Positions 385 to 55,303 are shown, numbered from the stretch's first letter. The stretch is 64,000 nucleotides of DNA from Escherichia coli (GCF_044324875.1 NZ_CP172185.1), one strand, 5' to 3'. Numbers and translations are program-made. The notes: generated from the sequence alone by a model not told the origin.

Positions 385-2644
385 ACATCTGACGGTTTTT
401 ATTGAAGTTAATCAAACTACCCGCCTTGATAATCTCGCGCTCTTCAGCAGTCAGACTTTCCATATAGAGCGTAATCTCTGTTACTGGCGCATCTTCATGG
501 ATCACATAACCCTTAAACGTCGTACCCGGATTATCCAGCGCCGCTTTAATGCCAGGGATGTAAATGTAATCCCCCACTTCAAACGTTGGTGCTTCCGCCA
601 TCTGCAGCGGTAACATCCCCCAGTTGATGACGTTAGAACGGTAGCGTTTAGTCGCGTACTCCTCGGCAATATTCGCCAGACCGCCAATCACACGCTGGCA
701 GCTCGCCGCCTGCTCACGCGCAGAACCATCGCCTGGTTTCACCGCATAGACCATGCTGCCAATTTCAGTTTGCAGCGGATCAATATGCTCCTGACCAGCA
801 ATCTGCTTAATGCGCGCAAACACCTCTGTCAGCTCGCTGACATTCCCCGCCAGACGCTGATTTTCCAGCTCAGCAGTCACTTTACTTCTGCCAACATAAC
901 CGGGATCGCGGCGTGACAGGGTAAACTCCGCCAGACCAATCGGATTTGAACGATAAGAAGAGGTTTCACCGGAAGGGATCAGTTCGTCGGTGGTGGTCAC
1001 TTCGTCGAGGATCTTCGAGCACACTTTGAGGACGATATTGTCAGTCAGCGCCCCCAATTCCGGCCAGTCTTTAATGTTCGGTCCGTAAATCAGCGGTTGC
1101 TGAGTTGCCCCTTTCACAAAGCCCTGATAAACACGGTTTTTATACGGCGTTACATCGAAGGCGTACTCCGGCACGTTGTCCCAGCAATCGAGTTCGCTGG
1201 CAGAAGTTAAATAGCCACCGTTTGCCGCAGTCGCAGCGATAGAACGAGCGTCCATCAACGCCACCGCTGACATCTGCCCATTGGCTGGCTTAGAGCCTTC
1301 GCGGTTCGGGAAGTTACGCGTGGTGTGGCGAATACTCAAACCGTTGTTGATTGGCGTATCGCCCGCGCCAAAGCATGGGCCGCAGAACGCGGTTCTGATG
1401 ATTGCGCCTGCGCCAATCAAATCTGCTACCACACCTTTTTTGGCGAGATCCATAAACACCGGCTGTGATGACGGGTAAACCGCTAACGAGAAGGTGTCAT
1501 TGCCACAGGATTGACCGCGCAGTGCATTCGCCGCCGCGATGACGTTTTCGTAGTTACCGCCAGAACAGCCCGCGATAATCCCCTGCTGCACTTTCAGGCG
1601 ACCATTTTCCACTTTATCCAGCAGCGAGAGTTTGGCTTTACCGTGCGCCACGCGTTCGGACTCAATTTCAATCTCACGCAGAATGTCGGTCAGGTTCTGG
1701 TTCAGCGTGTCGATTTCATACACGTTGCTCGGGTGAAACGGCAGCGCAATCATTGGTTTGATGGCGCTTAAATCAACGCTGATGCAGCCATCGTAGTACG
1801 CCATCGGTTGAGGGTTAAGCTGGCAGTAATCCTGGCCGCGACCGTGCAGCGCCAGCCAGTTATGGACTTCTTCATCGGTTTGCCAGACAGAACTTAAACA
1901 GGTCGTTTCAGTGGTCATAACGTCAACGCTGTTACGGAAATCGGTAGAGAGCGCAGCAACACCGGGACCTACGAATTCCATCACTTTGTTTTTGACGTAG
2001 CCGTTTTTGAACACGGCACCGATGATAGCCAGCGCCACATCCTGTGGCCCCACATACGGCGCTGGTTTTCCGGTCAGATGCACCGCAACAACTCCCGGAT
2101 AGTCGATATCCCAGGTGTCATTAAGCAATTGTTTTACCAACTCGCCGCCGCCCTCACCGACTGCCATTGTCCCTAATGCACCGTAACGGGTGTGGCTGTC
2201 TGACCCGAGGATCATTTTGCCGCCGCCTGCCATCATCTCACGCATATATTGATGGATGACCGCAATATGCGGAGGCACAAAAATACCGCCATAACGCTGC
2301 GCTGCCGATAAACCAAAAACATGGTCATCACCGTTAATGGTGCCGCCGACGGCGCAAAGTGAGTTATGGCAGTTGGTCAGCACATACGGCAGCGGGAAAC
2401 GTTCCATACCGGACGCTTTAGCAGTCTGTACAATCCCAACAAAGGTAATATCGTGAGAGGCTAATGAATTAAACTTAATTTTAAGTTTATCCATATTTCC
2501 GGACGTATTATGAGAAGAGAGAATAGACCAGGCAATAGTGCCTTTTTTGGCTTCTTCTTTTTTAATTTCGCCGGTGAAATGTTCTTCGGCAATTATTTCG
2601 TTATTACTGGCGAGAAACACGCCTTTTTCAGATAACTTGATCAT
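383..2644 (-). CDS. ybhJ: Aconitase-family putative hydratase (753 aa from the ATG; the track ORF starts at an upstream GTG)
   Basis: 761-aa ORF with aconitase-like Cys/Gly-rich motifs; length from the internal Met (MIKLSEKG) matches K-12 YbhJ; synteny. Confidence 0.85.
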
Positions 2645-2826
2645 CAAATGCTCCAGATATCTGCGCACCGAGAAGTGCGCAGAAAGATAATAAATGGATA
2701 TACTCTAAATAATTAGAGTTGCAGGAAGGCGACTAGCGAGTGAATCCCCAGGCGCTTACATAAGTAAGTGACTGGGGTGAGCGAACGCAGACGCAGCACA
2801 TGCAACTTGAAGTATGACGAGTATAT

Positions 2827-4260
2827 TTACAGCATGTTCCAGCCGATCAGCATATTCCACCACCACACACCGAGGGTGATATGTACCAGGAAGGTTAATA
2901 TCGTCAGTACCGCACCGACCAACCACCAGGATTTAATATCGTTGTAACCCACGCCAAAGATGACCGGACCTGCCGCGCCGCCATAGTGAGTAACCATGCC
3001 GCCATAGGAGTTGGAGAACAACAGTGCCAGCGCGGTTAACATTAACGGTGCGCCGGAGACGTTCGCCAGCATGGCAAATACCGGTAACATAGCAACGATA
3101 TAGGCACTACCGGAAGCGAAGAAATAACGAACGATGATGCTGAGGAAAATAATAACGAAGAAAGCAACGTTACCGTGACCATCAAATGCCAGGTTATTTT
3201 TAAAGACTTCAGCTAACCATTCGAAGAATTTAACTTTCGATAATAAGGAGCTTAAGCCGATAATACCGCCGTACCAGATTAAGGTATTCCAGCCGCCTTT
3301 ATTTTTAACCACGTCTTCCCAGGTAACGATACCCAGCAGCAGCATAGTCGCCATAACAACGATTGCCACGGTGGATTCATCAACCCCCAGTGACTTACTG
3401 AAAATCCAGCCCAGCAGCGCCAGCACGAAGACACCGAGCAGCATTTTTTCGCGGATTTTCATCGGTCCCAGTTCGGCAAGGCCCGCTTTGGCGATAGTTT
3501 TGTTATCCACCTTCTTAATTTCTGGCGGATACATGGTGTAAATCACCAGCGGGGTGACCAGCAGCATAATGATACCCGGCAATCCGGCGGCCAGCGCCCA
3601 TCCACCCCAGCTAATTTGCAGGTGCAGAATGTCGTTGATCATTTTCAGCGCCAGAATGTTCCCCGCCATTGCGGTAAAGAACATATAGCTGGTGGTTTTG
3701 GTGACCATGTAAATGGACATCATCAGGTAATGTCCGACACGACGCGGGCTTTTTTCAGGTTCTGACCCCAAAGCCACCGCCACGCTGTTGATGATCGGTA
3801 ACACAATGCCGCCCGCACGCGCGGTGTTAGACGGTGTTGCCGGAGCCAGTACCAGATCGAGAAATACCGTAACGTAACCCAGGCCCAGGGTAGTGCTACC
3901 AATTTTACCAATCAGCAAATAGGCAATACGTTTACCTAAGCCGGTGGTCACAAATGCGGCGCTTAAGGTAAACGCCGAGAACACCAGCCAGGTGGTACCT
4001 GAAGAGTAACCGCTTAATACGGCGGTGGTTTTAAACGCACCGTCGGATAAGTTACCGACCACCACCATGGAGGCAGCAACGGCAATTAACAGTACGACAG
4101 GTTCCGGGAAAGGCTTGATAACCAGCCCCACAATGGCCGCCAGGTAAATACCAAAAAGCACCCACGCCAGTTCGCTTAATCCTGCCGGAGCTGGCATAAA
4201 GCCAATAATACATGGGATCGCTAATATCAGAATTAGCTTCCATAACGATTTTTTATTCAT
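2827..4260 (-). CDS. ybhI: DASS-family anion/tricarboxylate transporter
   Basis: 477-aa polytopic membrane protein; length and position match K-12 ybhI. Confidence 0.85.
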   Translation of the reverse strand: MNKKSLWKLILILAIPCIIGFMPAPAGLSELAWVLFGIYLAAIVGLVIKPFPEPVVLLIAVAASMVVVGNLSDGAFKTTAVLSGYSSGTTWLVFSAFTLSAAFVTTGLGKRIAYLLIGKIGSTTLGLGYVTVFLDLVLAPATPSNTARAGGIVLPIINSVAVALGSEPEKSPRRVGHYLMMSIYMVTKTTSYMFFTAMAGNILALKMINDILHLQISWGGWALAAGLPGIIMLLVTPLVIYTMYPPEIKKVDNKTIAKAGLAELGPMKIREKMLLGVFVLALLGWIFSKSLGVDESTVAIVVMATMLLLGIVTWEDVVKNKGGWNTLIWYGGIIGLSSLLSKVKFFEWLAEVFKNNLAFDGHGNVAFFVIIFLSIIVRYFFASGSAYIVAMLPVFAMLANVSGAPLMLTALALLFSNSYGGMVTHYGGAAGPVIFGVGYNDIKSWWLVGAVLTILTFLVHITLGVWWWNMLIGWNML

Positions 4261-4335
4261 TTAAAATCCTGTTCTTTCTGTATGACTCATACAGAAGTCC
4301 TTTATTGATTGTCCTTATCCTGACAACGAATTTTT

Positions 4336-5388
4336 TCAGGGAAGAAAAACTTCACCGGAAAATATTTTTCTGGTTGTCCGAATAACAGATGCGCGTAACG
4401 TCGTGGCATCCTGACCTTCATTACTTAAATGAACGTCGAGCGCACCACTGGGGTGTTCAATATTGATATTGCCGTATCCTACAGAAGGGACGATTTGTCG
4501 GGTGACGGTGCCTTCCAATGCACAACTACTGGAAATGGCAATAGCACCGGTTATCGCCAGCGCGCGATGGCAAGAATGCGGCATAAAATAACGCACATTA
4601 ATTGCTCCGCCTTTCTGCGCTGGAGAAATAAGCACAGGTTTAGGGATAACCATATTACTGACATCGCCTAATCCCATTGCTTTACCCGCTTGTAGACGGA
4701 TAGATTCAATGCGGGCTAATAATGCTTTGTCGGCATCCAGCTCCGCCGGTAATTCATAGCCTGTTTTTCCCAGATATTCAGCAGGAATAATGACAACTGG
4801 CATCGCCATATCGATACAGGTCACCGGGACATCGTCAAAATAATCAATCTGATTATCAGTCGGGAAGATTTTTCCGGTTTTGGTTCCGGCGGCATTCAGG
4901 AAAGTGAGCGCAACCGGTGCGGCAGTACCCGGTACGCCGTCAATTCTGGCGCTACCCTCGTACTCGACAACACCATTTGGCGTTTGCACATCAGCTTCGA
5001 TGAACGTACCCGTATTGACGTTGCGGATACGTACGCGGGTAACTGGCGAAGTCGCTGCAATCAAACCATTTTCAATGGCGAATGCCCCAACCCCAGACAA
5101 CATATTGCCGCAGTTTGGTGTTGTATCGACACGCTGCTCATGGACAATAACCTGAGCAAACAGATAATCGACATCAGCACGCGGATCGTCGGAATGGCTA
5201 ATAATGGCGACTTTACTGGTCAGCGGATTACCGCCGCCAATACCGTCAATTTCCAGATCGTTACCGGAACCCATAATTGCCATCAATATTTTATCGCGCT
5301 GCGTTTGATCTTCGGGTAGATGTTCCGCTAACAGGAACGCGCCCCTCGAGGTTCCCCCTCTCATCATCACGCAGGGTATTTTTTTCAT
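4336..5388 (-). CDS. ybhH: PrpF/AcnD-accessory-like isomerase family protein
   Basis: 350-aa ORF; length and synteny match K-12 ybhH. Confidence 0.8.
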   Translation of the reverse strand: MKKIPCVMMRGGTSRGAFLLAEHLPEDQTQRDKILMAIMGSGNDLEIDGIGGGNPLTSKVAIISHSDDPRADVDYLFAQVIVHEQRVDTTPNCGNMLSGVGAFAIENGLIAATSPVTRVRIRNVNTGTFIEADVQTPNGVVEYEGSARIDGVPGTAAPVALTFLNAAGTKTGKIFPTDNQIDYFDDVPVTCIDMAMPVVIIPAEYLGKTGYELPAELDADKALLARIESIRLQAGKAMGLGDVSNMVIPKPVLISPAQKGGAINVRYFMPHSCHRALAITGAIAISSSCALEGTVTRQIVPSVGYGNINIEHPSGALDVHLSNEGQDATTLRASVIRTTRKIFSGEVFLP

Positions 5389-5571
5389 AATAATGCCCTC
5401 AATTTAAAAACATAACTTATTGCGATATGGTTACATTAAGGGCAAAGCATCTCTAATGACTTTAGCTCAACGATTAATAACATTTTTTCATTAATTTAAG
5501 TTAGCTAAATGCAGTTAAAATTTTTAACGGCCAGTCACCCAAAATCGACGCTTCCATTTTCCGGAGTAATA

Positions 5572-6525
5572 ATGAAGCATGAATTATCAAGTATGAAGGC
5601 ATTTGTCATACTGGCAGAGTCCAGTTCATTTAACAATGCCGCTAAATTACTCAATATTACGCAACCTGCATTAACGCGAAGAATAAAAAAGATGGAGGAA
5701 GATTTACATATCCAACTATTTGAGCGTACAACTCGCAAGGTTACGTTAACAAAAGCAGGAAAAAGATTGCTCCCGGAGGCGCGGGAATTAATAAAGAAAT
5801 TCGATGAAACGCTTTTTAATATTCGTGATATGAATGCTTATCATCGTGGTATGGTGACATTAGCGTGTATTCCGACCGCAGTATTTTATTTTTTACCGCT
5901 GGCAATCGGTAAATTTAATGAGCTTTATCCCAATATTAAAGTGCGGATTCTGGAACAAGGTACGAATAATTGCATGGAATCGGTGCTGTGTAACGAATCA
6001 GACTTTGGCATAAACATGAACAACGTCACAAATTCATCCATCGATTTTACCCCCCTGGTCAACGAGCCGTTCGTGCTGGCCTGTCGGCGTGACCATCCAT
6101 TGGCCAAAAAGCAGCTTGTAGAATGGCAGGAGTTAGTGGGTTACAAAATGATTGGCGTACGCTCCTCCAGCGGCAACCGACTGTTGATAGAACAACAGCT
6201 GGCCGACAAGCCCTGGAAGCTGGACTGGTTTTACGAAGTGCGTCATCTTTCGACGTCATTAGGACTGGTGGAGGCGGGACTGGGAATTTCGGCGCTTCCT
6301 GGTCTGGCAATGCCCCATGCACCCTATTCTTCGATTATTGGTATCCCGCTGGTGGAACCGGTTATACGTCGAACATTGGGGATTATTCGCCGCAAAGATG
6401 CCGTGCTTTCTCCGGCAGCTGAACGCTTTTTTGCCTTGCTGATTAATTTGTGGACTGACGATAAAGACAATTTGTGGACCAATATCGTCGAACGCCAGAG
6501 ACATGCGTTACAGGAGATAGGTTAA
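5572..6525 (+). CDS. ybhD: LysR-family transcriptional regulator, divergent from ybhH
   Basis: N-terminal HTH (FNNAAKLLNITQPALTRRIKKMEE); start placed at the internal ATG at 5572 to give 317 aa as in K-12. Confidence 0.8.
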   Translation: MKHELSSMKAFVILAESSSFNNAAKLLNITQPALTRRIKKMEEDLHIQLFERTTRKVTLTKAGKRLLPEARELIKKFDETLFNIRDMNAYHRGMVTLACIPTAVFYFLPLAIGKFNELYPNIKVRILEQGTNNCMESVLCNESDFGINMNNVTNSSIDFTPLVNEPFVLACRRDHPLAKKQLVEWQELVGYKMIGVRSSSGNRLLIEQQLADKPWKLDWFYEVRHLSTSLGLVEAGLGISALPGLAMPHAPYSSIIGIPLVEPVIRRTLGIIRRKDAVLSPAAERFFALLINLWTDDKDNLWTNIVERQRHALQEIG

Positions 6526-36600: not shown

Positions 36601-37147
36601 ATCCCTCCTGTCGCGAAAAATGGCCTGCGTTATTGCCAGACGTAATAAAACTTTTGATTAACGTTTCTCGTACTGGTAGCACCTTCATGTACTTTTCTTT
36701 TTTACGAAAAATCAAAAGAGCTAACAAAGGTCATAATTCGCATGAATCATTAATTATTTGTTATTTTCAACATTATTTTTACATTAAGCAGAGATGAATT
36801 GCAGTGAAATTCGACTTAACTTTTATGAAATGCATTTACTCATGGCTAAAGCCACGTCACAAAAATGCAAATTAGAAGTAGATCACAAATATCTCAATAC
36901 ATCAAATCAAGTTAATTTTAAAAATTTAATATTCATGACATTAGTTGACATAACACACTGAATTATAATGAGAATTTGAAAACACACTTTAAACAATCAT
37001 TTCCCGAAAGACATTTTGAAAATAGATCAATTGCAACATTACGGTCAGATAAAGACACTCCTGTGATATTAAACCTGTGCCGTTATGAACGGCCATAAAT
37101 ACGACGTGTGTAACTTATTTTACTCTCTGTCTTACAAAGGATTACCC

Positions 37148-37597
37148 ATGAAGAAAGCAACACTTGTGATTGGCGTTATTGGCGCGGACTGCCATGCAGT
37201 AGGCAATAAAGTTCTGGACCGCGTTTTTAGCAACCATGGCTTCAGAGTCATTAATCTGGGCGTAATGGTCAGCCAGGACGAATATATTGATGCTGCCATT
37301 GAAACTGGTGCTGACGCGATTGTCGTCTCCTCTATCTATGGGCATGGCGATATCGATTGTCTGGGCATGCGCGAACGCTGCATTGAGCGTGGGCTGGGTA
37401 ACATCCTGCTCTATGTGGGCGGTAACCTGGTGGTCGGAAAACATGACTTCGCTGACGTGGAAACCAAGTTCAAAGAGATGGGATTTGATCGCGTCTTTGC
37501 CCCAAGTCATGACTTAGAAGATGTTTGTCAGCTGATGGCCCACGATATCAACCAACGTCATGACGTTGATACTCGCATTCTTGAAGAGGCAATCTGA
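37148..37597 (+). CDS. glmS: Glutamate mutase (methylaspartate mutase) S subunit, B12-binding
   Basis: B12-binding motif (GADCHAVG) and strong resemblance to clostridial GlmS/MutS; start at the ATG at 37148 (149 aa). Confidence 0.85.
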
Positions 37598-38985
37598 TGC
37601 AAATCGTCTCTGTCGATATTGGATCGACGTGGACCAAAGCAGCCCTCTTCGCCCGGGAGGGGGACGCGTTAACGTTGGTTAACCACGTACTGACCCCAAC
37701 CACCACCCATCATCTGGCGAAGGGTTTTTTCTCCAGCCTGAACCTGGTGTTAAACGTAGATAATGCCCTCCCCCTGTTTAACAACGGTGAGGTTGCATTG
37801 AAGTATTCCTCCTCTGCCAAAGGTGGGCTGGCGGTTGCCGCAATGGGGTTGGTGCCATCTATCACCCTGGAAACCGCGAAAGTAACCGCTCACTCTGCGG
37901 GGGCTAAAATTGCGCAATATTACGCCTACAAGCTGAACCGCCGTGATATCCAGGCACTGGAAGAAACGCAGCCCGATATTCTCTTGTTCACCGGCGGCAC
38001 CGACGGCGGAGAAGAAAGCTACGGCCTGAATAACGCCCGTGTGCTGGCAGAATCCAAACTCGACTGCGCCATTATTTATGCCGGAAACCGGGATATTCAG
38101 GACGAGGTGCAGGAGATCCTAGGGCATAAAGACCTGACCATCGTCGACAACGTTCTGCCCGATCTTGACCATCCGAACCCTTTAGCTGCACGCCAGGCTA
38201 TCTGCGACATATTCCTTAAACGCATCGTTAAAGGGAAAGGGCTGGATGTCATTGTTGATAAAACAGGCGAAGAACCAATGCCGACACCATGGACGGTCTT
38301 TGAACTGGTTAAGGCAATCAGTAACGTCGATCACAGCTGGAAAGAGTTCATGCTGATCGACATGGGCGGCGCAACCACCGATGTCTATTCAGCCTGTGCC
38401 AACACGCTCTCGCCCGACACCGTTTTACACGGCGTACCGGAACCCTTCGTGAAACGGACGGTGGAAGGCGATCTGGGAATGCGCGTCTCGGCAATGGTGG
38501 TTGGTGAAAGTGCGAAAGAGTTAGTCAATGTGAATTTTGCTCAGCAACCCGCACAGCTGGACGCTTTTTATCATTACCTCCGTCATCTAGTCGCTCATCC
38601 CGACTACTTACCCGCGAATGTAGAAGAAAAATATTTCGATACCGTCCTGGCCGGACTGTGTGTGGGTTATGCCACCGAAAGACATGCGGGCACCAAAAAA
38701 GAGGTCTGCACCTGCGTCGGCAATGTCGATTTACAGATGGGACGTGACCTGACAACCGTGCGTAAAGTCGTCGGATCCGGCGGATGGCTCTCGCGTGCCA
38801 GTCAGTTCGATATGCATCACTGGTTGAAATACCGCGAGTTAAACGACGACGGTAAACGCATTCTCTTACCGACCGAATTTGAATATTACCGCGATTCCCG
38901 GGGGCTATTACCACTGCTGGCAAACGTCGCCAGAGTCGATCCGCTGGCCGCCGCGCGCACCAGTATTCAATGCTTAACCCTATAA
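37597..38985 (+). CDS. glmL: Glutamate mutase-associated protein L (MutL/GlmL)
   Basis: 462 aa; start overlaps the glmS stop (TGATG); position between S and E subunits as in clostridial operons. Confidence 0.75.
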   Translation: MQIVSVDIGSTWTKAALFAREGDALTLVNHVLTPTTTHHLAKGFFSSLNLVLNVDNALPLFNNGEVALKYSSSAKGGLAVAAMGLVPSITLETAKVTAHSAGAKIAQYYAYKLNRRDIQALEETQPDILLFTGGTDGGEESYGLNNARVLAESKLDCAIIYAGNRDIQDEVQEILGHKDLTIVDNVLPDLDHPNPLAARQAICDIFLKRIVKGKGLDVIVDKTGEEPMPTPWTVFELVKAISNVDHSWKEFMLIDMGGATTDVYSACANTLSPDTVLHGVPEPFVKRTVEGDLGMRVSAMVVGESAKELVNVNFAQQPAQLDAFYHYLRHLVAHPDYLPANVEEKYFDTVLAGLCVGYATERHAGTKKEVCTCVGNVDLQMGRDLTTVRKVVGSGGWLSRASQFDMHHWLKYRELNDDGKRILLPTEFEYYRDSRGLLPLLANVARVDPLAAARTSIQCLTL

Positions 38986-47224: not shown

Positions 47225-48130
47225 TTACATCTCCTGCGGTACAACCGATTTCGCCAGCAACCATTCACGAAATTGCTGCAAGTGCGGTGAGTCAGACTTC
47301 TCTTCCTGCCACGTCATAATAAAACGATTACCGGTACGAATAGGCACATCACAGGGGATCACCATATCGCCACTATCCAAATCATGTTGAATAGCGAAAC
47401 GTGGTAACAGCGCCACGCCGAGATTAGAGCGCACGGCGGCAATCAGCATTGAAAGCAAATCGAAACGTGGTCCGTTGTTGACCAGCGGACTGCTAACGCC
47501 AGATAAGGCAAACCACTCTTCCCAGCCAGTAATACGGGTACTTTGATGCAGAAGTGGTAACTCTGTAAGCAGTTCTGCCACTGACAGTTTTTGATCGGAC
47601 ATTGCAAGCAAACTGCCGCTGCATACCGGCAAAATCTCCTCATCAAAGAGATATTCTACTTCCGCCCAGGGCGCGCAAAAATTTTCGCGCATAATGACAG
47701 CATCGTACTCCCGATTAAGAAAATCGCCGTTATTAGCTAAAGAGTGAATATTAACAATAATATCGGGATGTAACTTTGTGAATTCATGTAAATTTGGGAT
47801 TAACCAGTGGGTACTAAACGTAGGATTCACGGCAAGTTCAATAACCTGAACCGTAGGCTGCCAGGTCATAATGGTATTGGTATCGCGTTCCAGCTTATTT
47901 AATGTTTCTTTTACTATCCCCAGGTAATACTTCCCTGCATCATTAAGAAAAATACGTTTTTTAGAGTGTGAAAATAACGGAGTATGTAAAAATTCCTCCA
48001 GCGCACTCACTTGTCTGAATACTGCACTTTGGGTCAACGCTAACTCCTCTGCCGCTTTGGTATAACTTTCATGACGTGCGACGACCTCAAAAGTCACCAG
48101 CAGCTCCGTTTTAGGTATTTTTCCTCGCAT
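47225..48130 (-). CDS. LysR-family transcriptional regulator
   Basis: 301 aa; N-terminal HTH (YTKAAEELALTQSAVFRQVSALEE). Confidence 0.85.
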   Translation of the reverse strand: MRGKIPKTELLVTFEVVARHESYTKAAEELALTQSAVFRQVSALEEFLHTPLFSHSKKRIFLNDAGKYYLGIVKETLNKLERDTNTIMTWQPTVQVIELAVNPTFSTHWLIPNLHEFTKLHPDIIVNIHSLANNGDFLNREYDAVIMRENFCAPWAEVEYLFDEEILPVCSGSLLAMSDQKLSVAELLTELPLLHQSTRITGWEEWFALSGVSSPLVNNGPRFDLLSMLIAAVRSNLGVALLPRFAIQHDLDSGDMVIPCDVPIRTGNRFIMTWQEEKSDSPHLQQFREWLLAKSVVPQEM

Positions 48131-48191: not shown

Positions 48192-48693
48192 GTAACCAAA
48201 GCAGCAATAAATAATTTATAAGAATCATGATTGACATTTATAACCCAGTAAGCCTGGCGTGACAAATATCTTAATCAGATAATAATAATCCGAAAAGCAC
48301 AGCGCCTTTCGAATTATCCGGAATCACATTAAGTGAAAATTATTAAATTGATATCATTTATCATATCTGTGGATATTATGATAAACAATCAACAAAGATT
48401 TTATTTTTGATTTATAGCATATCCCTCTAAGAATTTTTGCGATGCTGCAATATCCGGGGTAAAGACCCGATCCTGGCTGACAAATGGCACGACTTGACGA
48501 TAAGCGGTGAACATCGCTTTTGTTGATTTACTTAACGCTACGGTCAAACGCTGGGAAGCCAGTGCATCAGGTAACGATTCGAAATTCGCCGTCGTTCTTA
48601 TTCGTGGCTTGCGGTCGGTTGCGGCAATCCACAGTGGCTGTGGTCATGCAGTCAAGCCAGCGGTCAGATTTCGACCGTGGTTAACATTTAAGG

Positions 48694-55120: not shown

Positions 55121-55303
55121 CTGCATTTCTTTTGTAGGCCGGATAAGGCATTCACGCCACATCCGGCGCTGTTTGCCTGATGCGACGCTTGCGCGTCTTA
55201 TCAGGCCTACGATTTCTGCATTTCTTTTGTAGGCCGGATAAGGCGTTCACGCCGCATCCGGCACTGGTTGCCTGATGCGACGCTTGTGCGTCTTATCAGG
55301 CCT
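55121..55303. repeat. Tandem duplication (period about 95 bp) of a REP/BIME unit in the sdhB-sucA intergenic region
   Basis: Two near-identical units starting ctgcatttcttttgtaggccggataaggc… at 55121 and 55216. Confidence 0.8.

Follow-up and report, generated by a model that had tools for sequence, protein, structure and literature searches.

In enterobacteria, catabolic operons that depend on vitamin B12 are governed by transcription factors and not by a cobalamin riboswitch: eut is controlled through EutR, and pdu and cob are controlled through PocR. A second point of reference is provided by promoters served by LysR-type transcriptional regulators (LTTRs), such as GcvA at gcvT, AmpR at ampC, and DsdC at dsdXA; in this family, a regulator gene that lies divergent from its target and is subject to autoregulation is common but not obligatory. 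Cobalamin riboswitches that have been characterized repress, and they precede genes for B12 synthesis or uptake or for B12-independent isozymes (PMC9600662); metE is an example of the latter.

The glutamate-fermentation (methylaspartate pathway) cluster of Escherichia coli O157:H7 and other Enterobacteriaceae was described by Kronen and Berg (2015; PMC4682846). Its gene order is glmS-glmL-glmE-mal-DUF1446-DUF4387-gltP-fumD-cobO plus a LysR gene, between cydA and sucD, and about 90% of O157:H7 strains carry the island (PMC4682846). In the same study, no growth condition tried with E. coli O157:H7 yielded detectable methylaspartase; the failed induction attempts ("all attempts to find conditions") covered anaerobiosis, glutamate, and three cobalamins (PMC4682846). 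That paper covers the genes and FumD, and the promoter and the conserved block that we report here are absent from its description (PMC4682846). Our literature searches, by topic and by Sakai and EDL933 locus tags, found no papers on the regulation, promoter, block, start site, or expression of the operon.

The window analyzed here, a 64-kb stretch of the E. coli chromosome, runs from the lysT-valT tRNA cluster through cpoB-pal-tolBARQ-ybgC and cydXBA (minus strand) and then along the accessory island to sucD. The island begins with two unannotated orphan genes (35153 to 36097 and 36178 to 36600), whose proteins matched no family in Pfam, NCBIfam, PADLOC, or PHROGs; no terminator was found for the upstream orphan gene. 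They are followed by the subject of this analysis, a gap of 547 bp (36601 to 37147) that is present in a single copy per genome and has exact bounds, the stop of a 140-amino-acid (aa) open reading frame (ORF) at 36600 and the glmS ATG at 37148. The first gene of the operon, glmS (37148 to 37597, plus strand; RefSeq annotation; Pfam B12-binding, E = 1e-14), encodes the B12-binding small subunit of glutamate (methylaspartate) mutase. [quoted passage not shown] The only regulator gene of the cluster encodes a LysR-type protein of 301 aa with HTH_1 and LysR_substrate domains (47225 to 48130, minus strand) and is convergent with the operon. The island is found in 1,135 of 5,426 complete E. coli genomes (21%), and among the records listed from these 1,135 genomes with the gap, RefSeq places no feature inside it. 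With a G+C content of 31.8%, against 50.3% for the entire window, and 27 to 33% in each 200-nucleotide (nt) step, the gap is the uniformly AT-rich, noncoding stretch that a preliminary description, made from this sequence alone, had taken it to be.

The same description had stated that no B12-riboswitch-like element is present ahead of glmS, and covariance-model scanning agreed. When the whole window was scanned with Rfam, no match fell in the gap at gathering thresholds, and a search of 36000 to 37700 with permissive filters and E ≤ 10 returned only three chance matches, to eukaryotic RNA families, all with E > 2. As a positive control, the same scan recovered the cobalamin riboswitch RF00174 (gathering score, 31.5 bits) in two of the related loci, those of Lelliottia and Buttiauxella (L022 and L031; 104.4 and 99.8 bits), where it sits beside cobalamin-biosynthesis genes on the strand opposite to glmS, 4.4 kb upstream. 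In none of 24 related loci (12 from Enterobacterales and 12 from other phyla) did a riboswitch lie ahead of glmS. A degenerate B12-box pattern had no match in the gap at ≤3 mismatches, and its 4 matches in the window compare with 3.2 expected. The folding of the gap was no better than that of shuffled sequence (z = −0.22 across 560 nt, the whole gap, and −0.73 across its proximal 106 nt). The consensus fold of the short leader or 5′ untranslated region (5′UTR) across 13 genera reached −0.27 kcal/mol with no covarying or compensatory pair, and at about 82 nt the 5′UTR predicted below would be too short to hold the 189-position model of the cobalamin aptamer. We conclude that the gap is plain intergenic DNA that contains neither a cobalamin riboswitch nor another structured RNA.

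The premise of the preliminary description, that a cobalamin riboswitch might be expected here, is weak in light of the 24 loci and of the sign of the known switches. The sole likeness to RF00174 is the expectation raised by a B12-dependent enzyme, and because known switches repress, the absence of one before a B12-dependent mutase is itself expected; an OFF switch would be counterproductive at this position. Two further candidate contents of the gap were considered and rejected. Four small ORFs (36633 to 36797, 36794 to 36961, 36976 to 37098, and, on the minus strand, 36551 to 36727; 40 to 58 aa) gave no Pfam match above noise, and for each of them at least one other E. coli lineage has stop codons or frameshifts. 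A repeat or mobile element was rejected as well, as the gap has one copy per genome and holds just short chance-level repeats; its 40-bp-spaced repeat of TTTGAAAA is missing in O157:H7.

The gap was compared by BLAST with 80 loci encoding GlmS relatives, from one genome per species. Three tiers of similarity were apparent. The entire gap is recognizable solely in E. coli-like sequences; Escherichia whittamii keeps just its last ∼290 bp; and a block of 29 to 45 nt alone is found in Citrobacter, Klebsiella, Salmonella arizonae/diarizonae, Enterobacter, Lelliottia, Pluralibacter, Buttiauxella, and Pseudescherichia. Within E. coli, the proximal segment (36991 to 37147) is 98.6 to 100% identical between lineages, compared with 82 to 94% for the distal gap and ∼97% for the glmS coding sequence; the whole gap is at least 99% identical to the window in 134 of the 1,135 island genomes. 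As judged from these comparisons, selection is confined to the proximal ∼157 bp, and all detectable regulatory information lies there.

The distal part (36601 to 36990) evolves fast and has no BLAST similarity outside Escherichia. Its first portion, ∼36601 to 36741, is present only where both orphan genes are present, while the sequence from ∼36742 onward is common to E. whittamii, with which it is collinear, as it is with loci of Escherichia sp. Relative to E. whittamii, which has a 1,380-bp gap and no orphan genes, E. coli has the orphan genes and their flanks inserted at ∼34993 to 36742; in most genera the cluster directly abuts cydA, with a common gap of ∼1.2 kb. From this pattern, the distal ∼390 bp is read as AT-rich filler that changes quickly and that came in part with the two orphan genes inserted between cydA and glmS. 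The sole element discerned in the distal part was a weak TTGAT-containing motif (36952 to 36967, plus strand; cross-genus consensus AAC..TTGAT..AAA), with 60 to 80% column conservation among 30 nonredundant Enterobacteriaceae sequences; the E. coli copy is degenerate, with CTGAA replacing TTGAT.

Within the conserved segment is a 44-bp block, here termed the glm box (36992 to 37035, plus strand; TAAACAATCATTTCCCGAAAGACATTTTGAAAATAGATCAATTGC), which we propose is an operator. Its 21-bp core, TTTTGAAAATAGATCAATTGC, occurs with 0 or 1 mismatch in 38 Enterobacteriaceae loci and is unique within the 64-kb window at ≤3 mismatches. Among the 30 nonredundant sequences, the mean frequency of the most common base is 0.88 in the block versus 0.56 to 0.65 in its flanks. 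A 37-nt stretch (37004 to 37040) is 100% identical in at least 1,131 of the 1,135 island-bearing E. coli genomes, in one copy per genome, and is absent from E. coli genomes that lack the island. Recognizable variants of the block (AAGAnnTCCTGAnAATAnATCAATTGT and relatives) extend to Yersinia, Budvicia, Hafnia, Morganella, and Yokenella, and the stretches TGAAAATAGATCAATTG and ATCAATTG also belong to the block. A conserved dyad of the form TGA-N7-TCA, a T-N11-A arrangement, lies inside it (37017 to 37029, plus strand; TGAAAATAGATCA), a form that is nonspecific in AT-rich DNA, as the gap contains 16 matches to TNA-N7-TNA. The near invariance of 21 bp across genera exceeds what a regulator site typically needs. 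The block may contain overlapping sites, or its conservation may partly reflect recent horizontal spread of the island. We regard it as a putative operator that was previously undescribed.

The downstream end of the block overlaps a predicted promoter. The predicted −35 element (37031 to 37036, plus strand; TTGCAA) reads TTGCnn or TTGTnn in all Enterobacterales compared, and 17 nt past it is the predicted −10 element (37054 to 37059, plus strand; GACACT), for which GAAACT, CACACT, CACATT, and CATATT are found as variants. The 17-nt spacer, which falls within the 16 to 18 nt of a sigma-70 promoter, was seen in every Enterobacterales sequence inspected. Within the −10 element, positions 1, 3, and 5 vary and A2, A4, and T6 are always kept (nAnAnT), which is how a −10 element would be expected to vary under selection. 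A conserved promoter at 37031 to 37059 would place the start of transcription, on the basis of the −10 position, near 37066 (37065 to 37067) and give a 5′UTR of ∼82 nt. The predicted transcript would begin with a conserved TATTAA (37067 to 37072, plus strand; about +1 to +7) and carry a Shine-Dalgarno sequence, AGGA (37138 to 37141, plus strand), 6 nt ahead of the ATG, with GAGGAT or AAGGAT kept in all Enterobacterales. A small hairpin in the predicted 5′UTR (37076 to 37095, plus strand; stem GCCGTT/AACGGC) is confined to Escherichia, being absent or different elsewhere, and is not followed by a T run.

TTGCAA-17 nt-GACACT agrees with the consensus at 8 of 12 positions. Our simple promoter scan, which had a threshold of 9 of 12, missed it because of this match and the poor first position of the −10 element. 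The promoter is probably weak and dependent on an activator, since the −10 element lacks the usual first T and the overall match is 8 of 12. A weak promoter in need of an inducer would be consistent with the lack of expression seen in the laboratory.

The preliminary description had pointed instead to a TTGACA hexamer (36945 to 36950) and a TATAAT hexamer (36964 to 36969) and had treated the whole ∼550 bp as leader. Both hexamers are present, 13 nt apart on the plus strand, 80 to 120 bp upstream of the promoter that we predict, and the promoter scan called no plus-strand site there. They are unlikely to form a promoter because they are not conserved and because a 13-nt spacing is beyond the range of sigma-70; in O157:H7 and other E. 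coli lineages, TATAAT is replaced by TAACAT or TAAAAT, and TTGACA is replaced by TTGGCA or TTGGTG. The long leader likewise gives way to the ∼82-nt 5′UTR that the conserved promoter predicts.

To look for further copies of the block, a 28-position position weight matrix (PWM) was built from the aligned blocks and scanned over the 64-kb window and 888 kb of related loci. The glmS site scored 41 bits, and nothing else was found in the window. Across the 888 kb, eight further sites exceeded 11 bits, compared with one to three in locally shuffled controls, and five of the eight are in meaningful places, in two Yersinia species, Yokenella regensburgei, Enterobacter sp. ENT03, and Telmatospirillum. 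In the two Yersinia species, and in a third where the score is 12.1 bits, the copy lies between the LysR gene and fumD, faces fumD, and is followed by TTGCTT, 16 nt, and AATAAT. In Y. regensburgei and Enterobacter sp. ENT03, it occupies a divergent gap beside the LysR gene, is followed by TTGCCT, 17 nt, and TATATA, and heads a btuC-btuD-btuB-btuF operon, of which BtuC, BtuB, and BtuF score above curated NCBIfam cutoffs and an ABC ATPase lies between. In Telmatospirillum, an alphaproteobacterium, a 14-nt core, TCTGAAAATAGATC, is upstream of glmS. A PWM match in Morganella (L049 1135, L050 459) was set aside as probably due to chance because it lies in an AT-rich gap with no downstream gene.

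These placements bear on which protein binds the block. The cluster's regulator belongs to the GcvA/DsdC/AmpR subgroup of LysR proteins. Its orthologues remain with the glm cluster through rearrangements. In E. coli, Salmonella, and Enterobacter the gene stands at the far end, in Yersinia and Yokenella it lies upstream, and Rhodoferax and Aromatoleum have it immediately divergent from glmS. The more distant homologues P0057 (69% identity) and P0099 (45%), also LysR proteins, were discarded as paralogues because they lie outside glm clusters. Since the block is found only at promoters within the cluster, and in one arrangement within a classic divergent LysR gap, we favor the reading that it is the putative operator of the cluster's LysR regulator, to which we give somewhat better than even odds. 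In E. coli, 10 kb separates the LysR gene from the glmS promoter, and the gene is convergent rather than divergent. No conserved block precedes it in E. coli, Salmonella, or Enterobacter, whose regions upstream of the gene are themselves not conserved; nor is a block recognizable in the divergent LysR-glmS gaps of the betaproteobacteria Rhodoferax and Aromatoleum. A block-like sequence ahead of the E. coli LysR gene (48334 to 48350; TGAAAATTATTAAATTG) is probably a chance match because it is not conserved in Salmonella or Enterobacter.

Compared with the LTTR promoters introduced above, the glm locus has the linked regulator gene, the predicted weak promoter, the expected small-molecule inducer, and the conserved AT-rich block of ∼44 bp, which reaches the −35 element and contains a sequence of the loose T-N11-A form, and in Yokenella the block sits in a divergent gap between LysR and target. 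It differs from them in that the E. coli regulator is at the far end and convergent, in that the regulator's own promoter lacks a conserved block, and in that binding here is predicted. In sequence, we take the glm block to be unlike the published GcvA and AmpR sites.

A gap with no RNA sensor and a conserved block joined to a weak promoter therefore point to ordinary transcriptional control. We propose that the block adjoins a weak sigma-70 promoter that would start transcription near 37066 and produce an unstructured 5′UTR of ∼82 nt that carries an ordinary ribosome-binding site. The promoter would probably be turned on by an activator that occupies the block, centered ∼43 bp upstream of the predicted start, and the likeliest activator would be the cluster's LysR-type regulator (47225 to 48130), with glutamate, methylaspartate, mesaconate, and a corrinoid as candidate inducers. 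The distal AT-rich DNA may be coated by H-NS and so contribute to the silence of the operon. What we infer from these patterns is where transcription starts, that the regulator activates and does not repress, which protein binds, and any role of H-NS. We assign a probability of about 65% to this model as a whole, i.e., a riboswitch-free gap, a block plus a weak promoter, and activation by the LysR regulator. The preliminary description had likewise favored transcriptional control; that part appears to be right, and the LysR regulator, one of the factors it had named, seems the most plausible specific one.

An alternative activator would be a global regulator, either an anaerobic or carbon regulator of the CRP/FNR family or IHF or Fis, bound to the block in place of the cluster's LysR protein. 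In favor of this reading, glutamate is fermented anaerobically, a perfect ATCAA half-site occurs within the block, and a center ∼43 bp before the predicted start is the place of a class II CRP or FNR site; moreover, the core also occurs in an alphaproteobacterium, and the LysR gene's own promoter is without the block. Against these points, the dyad (TGA-N7-TCA) is one base wider than the TGA-N6-TCA of FNR and CRP. With TTGAT-N4-ATCAA and TGTGA-N6-TCACA as the FNR and CRP test sites, the gap contained no FNR match at ≤2 mismatches, and CRP-like matches with 2 or 3 mismatches fell outside the conserved block. The gap likewise held no exact match to the IHF consensus, and scans for FNR, CRP, ArcA, NarL, IHF, Fur, Lrp, ArgR, and sigma-54 consensus sites gave no good match in the block. 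Finally, the block occurs once per E. coli genome, in island carriers only, and elsewhere was found only at glm-cluster promoters, as would be the case for a local and not a global regulator. Because the dyad is too wide and the gap has no FNR site at ≤2 mismatches, a global regulator of anaerobic type is the weaker alternative, and we consider a global regulator at the block unlikely.

The model put forward in the preliminary description was H-NS silencing over AT-rich DNA as the main control, with the block as the place where silencing is relieved. Several observations are consistent with it. The gap has 31.8% G+C in a window of 50%, and the distribution of the island, which 21% of E. coli genomes carry, is of the kind usually seen for acquired DNA. 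The 300 nt ahead of glmS has 25 to 42% G+C in 53 of 53 Enterobacterales loci and ≤37% in all but one. The operon has not been inducible in the laboratory (PMC4682846), and one 8-of-10 match to the high-affinity H-NS motif overlaps the block at 37023 to 37032. However, because H-NS has a loose sequence preference, it cannot account for the invariant 21-bp core or for the nAnAnT pattern. In addition, the distal AT-rich part is conserved in neither sequence nor length, with the gap before glmS ranging from 297 to 1,574 nt across Enterobacterales loci. As the main control, H-NS silencing seems to us improbable; it would complement, and not replace, activation of the weak promoter through the block. 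A long leader transcribed from a distal promoter, e.g., TTGACA/TATAAT, and carrying an undescribed RNA switch or leader peptide could be imagined from the length of the gap, its ORFs of 40 to 58 aa, and its promoter-like hexamers, but it is highly improbable given that the hexamers and ORFs are not conserved even among E. coli, that there is no cross-genus BLAST similarity upstream of 36992, and that the sequence folds like its shuffles, lacks conserved or covarying structure, and has no Rfam match.

Activation of the glm operon by a LysR protein at the block would resemble the eut/EutR and pdu/PocR systems in placing a B12-dependent pathway under a transcription factor, with cofactor-supply genes embedded in or adjoining the cluster; it would differ in that the regulators there belong to the AraC family and the one here belongs to the LysR family. 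Cofactor supply is represented in or next to the glm cluster by cobO (E. coli), sumT and pduX (Yersinia), and btuCD-btuB-btuF (Yokenella). Rfam found no riboswitch at the btu uptake operon of ENT03 or at that of Yokenella, which adjoins glmS, and this riboswitch-free operon under the same block hints at co-induction of cofactor scavenging. More tentatively, then, the block and the LysR regulator may form a protein-based circuit that turns on the B12-dependent pathway together with its cofactor supply, a reading we hold to be possible but doubtful. If true, such a circuit would be a feed-forward scavenging of corrinoid, induced by a pathway substrate or by a corrinoid, and the opposite of riboswitch feedback. 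Under the circuit reading, the identity of the inducer would also explain the missing expression of the O157:H7 operon.

In itself, the missing riboswitch is a routine negative, as B12-dependent catabolic operons are not expected to bear cobalamin riboswitches. The glutamate-fermentation island is nevertheless carried by about one-fifth of complete E. coli genomes, yet conditions that induce it have never been found (PMC4682846). The comparisons presented here place the conserved regulatory information in a proximal segment of ∼157 bp, with a sharply defined putative operator and no RNA sensor, and thereby make the question of how this operon is induced directly testable.

The conserved 44-bp block proposed as the operator upstream of glmS (36992-37035), together with its predicted promoter, recurs in front of other genes in related loci, which are numbered here with one genome per species and cited in their own coordinates. 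In Yokenella regensburgei (L053), the LysR gene and glmS flank a full set of btuC, an ABC ATPase gene, btuB, and btuF (915-5703), and a copy of the block and promoter stands at the head of this btu operon (1026-1076). The BtuC, BtuB, and BtuF proteins scored above the curated NCBIfam equivalog thresholds used as cutoffs. The gene arrangement at the btu set of Enterobacter sp. ENT03 (L052) matches that of Yokenella. A cobalamin riboswitch is usual at btuB of enterobacteria; none was found in the Y. regensburgei locus.

In three Yersinia loci, a second copy of the block, TTGCAGATAGAACAATTGCT, was detected on the minus strand upstream of fumD-cobO (L041, 2254-2281; L042, ∼2305; L043, ∼2197), genes that in this genus are not cotranscribed with glmS. 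This copy is weaker and is followed by a −35/−10 pair.

True cobalamin riboswitches were found in Lelliottia (L022, 1464-1638; 104 bits) and Buttiauxella (L031, 1268-1442; 100 bits), in both cases on the minus strand, opposite to glmS and 4.4 kb upstream of it. The Lelliottia glm cluster adjoins cobalamin biosynthesis genes, which encode a tetrapyrrole methylase, a CobD-like aminotransferase, and a PduX-like kinase. Other Rfam matches in the E. coli window were routine: seven tRNAs with RtT repeats (24354-25252), the cpoB/ybgF thermometer (26178-26316), and two naRNA4 (REP-type) elements (55137-55302).

Around the block, the motif AAC..TTGAT..AAA is weakly conserved across genera ∼65 bp upstream (36952-36967); its TTGAT resembles an FNR half-site, and E. 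coli reads CTGAA there. A TATTAA at the predicted transcription start (37067-37072), kept in most Enterobacteriaceae, is a possible second protein contact or alternative −10. In Citrobacter amalonaticus S646 (L014, ∼5757-6000), the block is 244 nt from the glmS ATG, compared with 110 to 138 nt in other Enterobacteriaceae, and the predicted 5′UTR is therefore ∼110 nt longer; the extra sequence has a higher G+C content and is possibly a small inserted repeat.

On the cydA side, two AT-rich orphan genes of E. coli (35153-36097 and 36178-36600) constitute an insertion separating the cydA control region from the glm promoter. Their products (314 and 140 amino acids) had no matches in Pfam, NCBIfam, PADLOC, or PHROGs. 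Both genes are missing in E. whittamii and other genera and are decayed in Escherichia sp. MOD1-EC7003 (L028).

In the search of E. coli genomes, 1 of 1135 copies of the locus was carried by a record labeled as plasmid, not chromosome. The 14-nt core of the enterobacterial block, TCTGAAAATAGATC, is also present upstream of glmS in an alphaproteobacterium, Telmatospirillum sp. (L068, 5770-5797), where it sits within an AT-rich patch of a genome with 64% G+C. This placement suggests that the promoter moves together with the operon during horizontal transfer.
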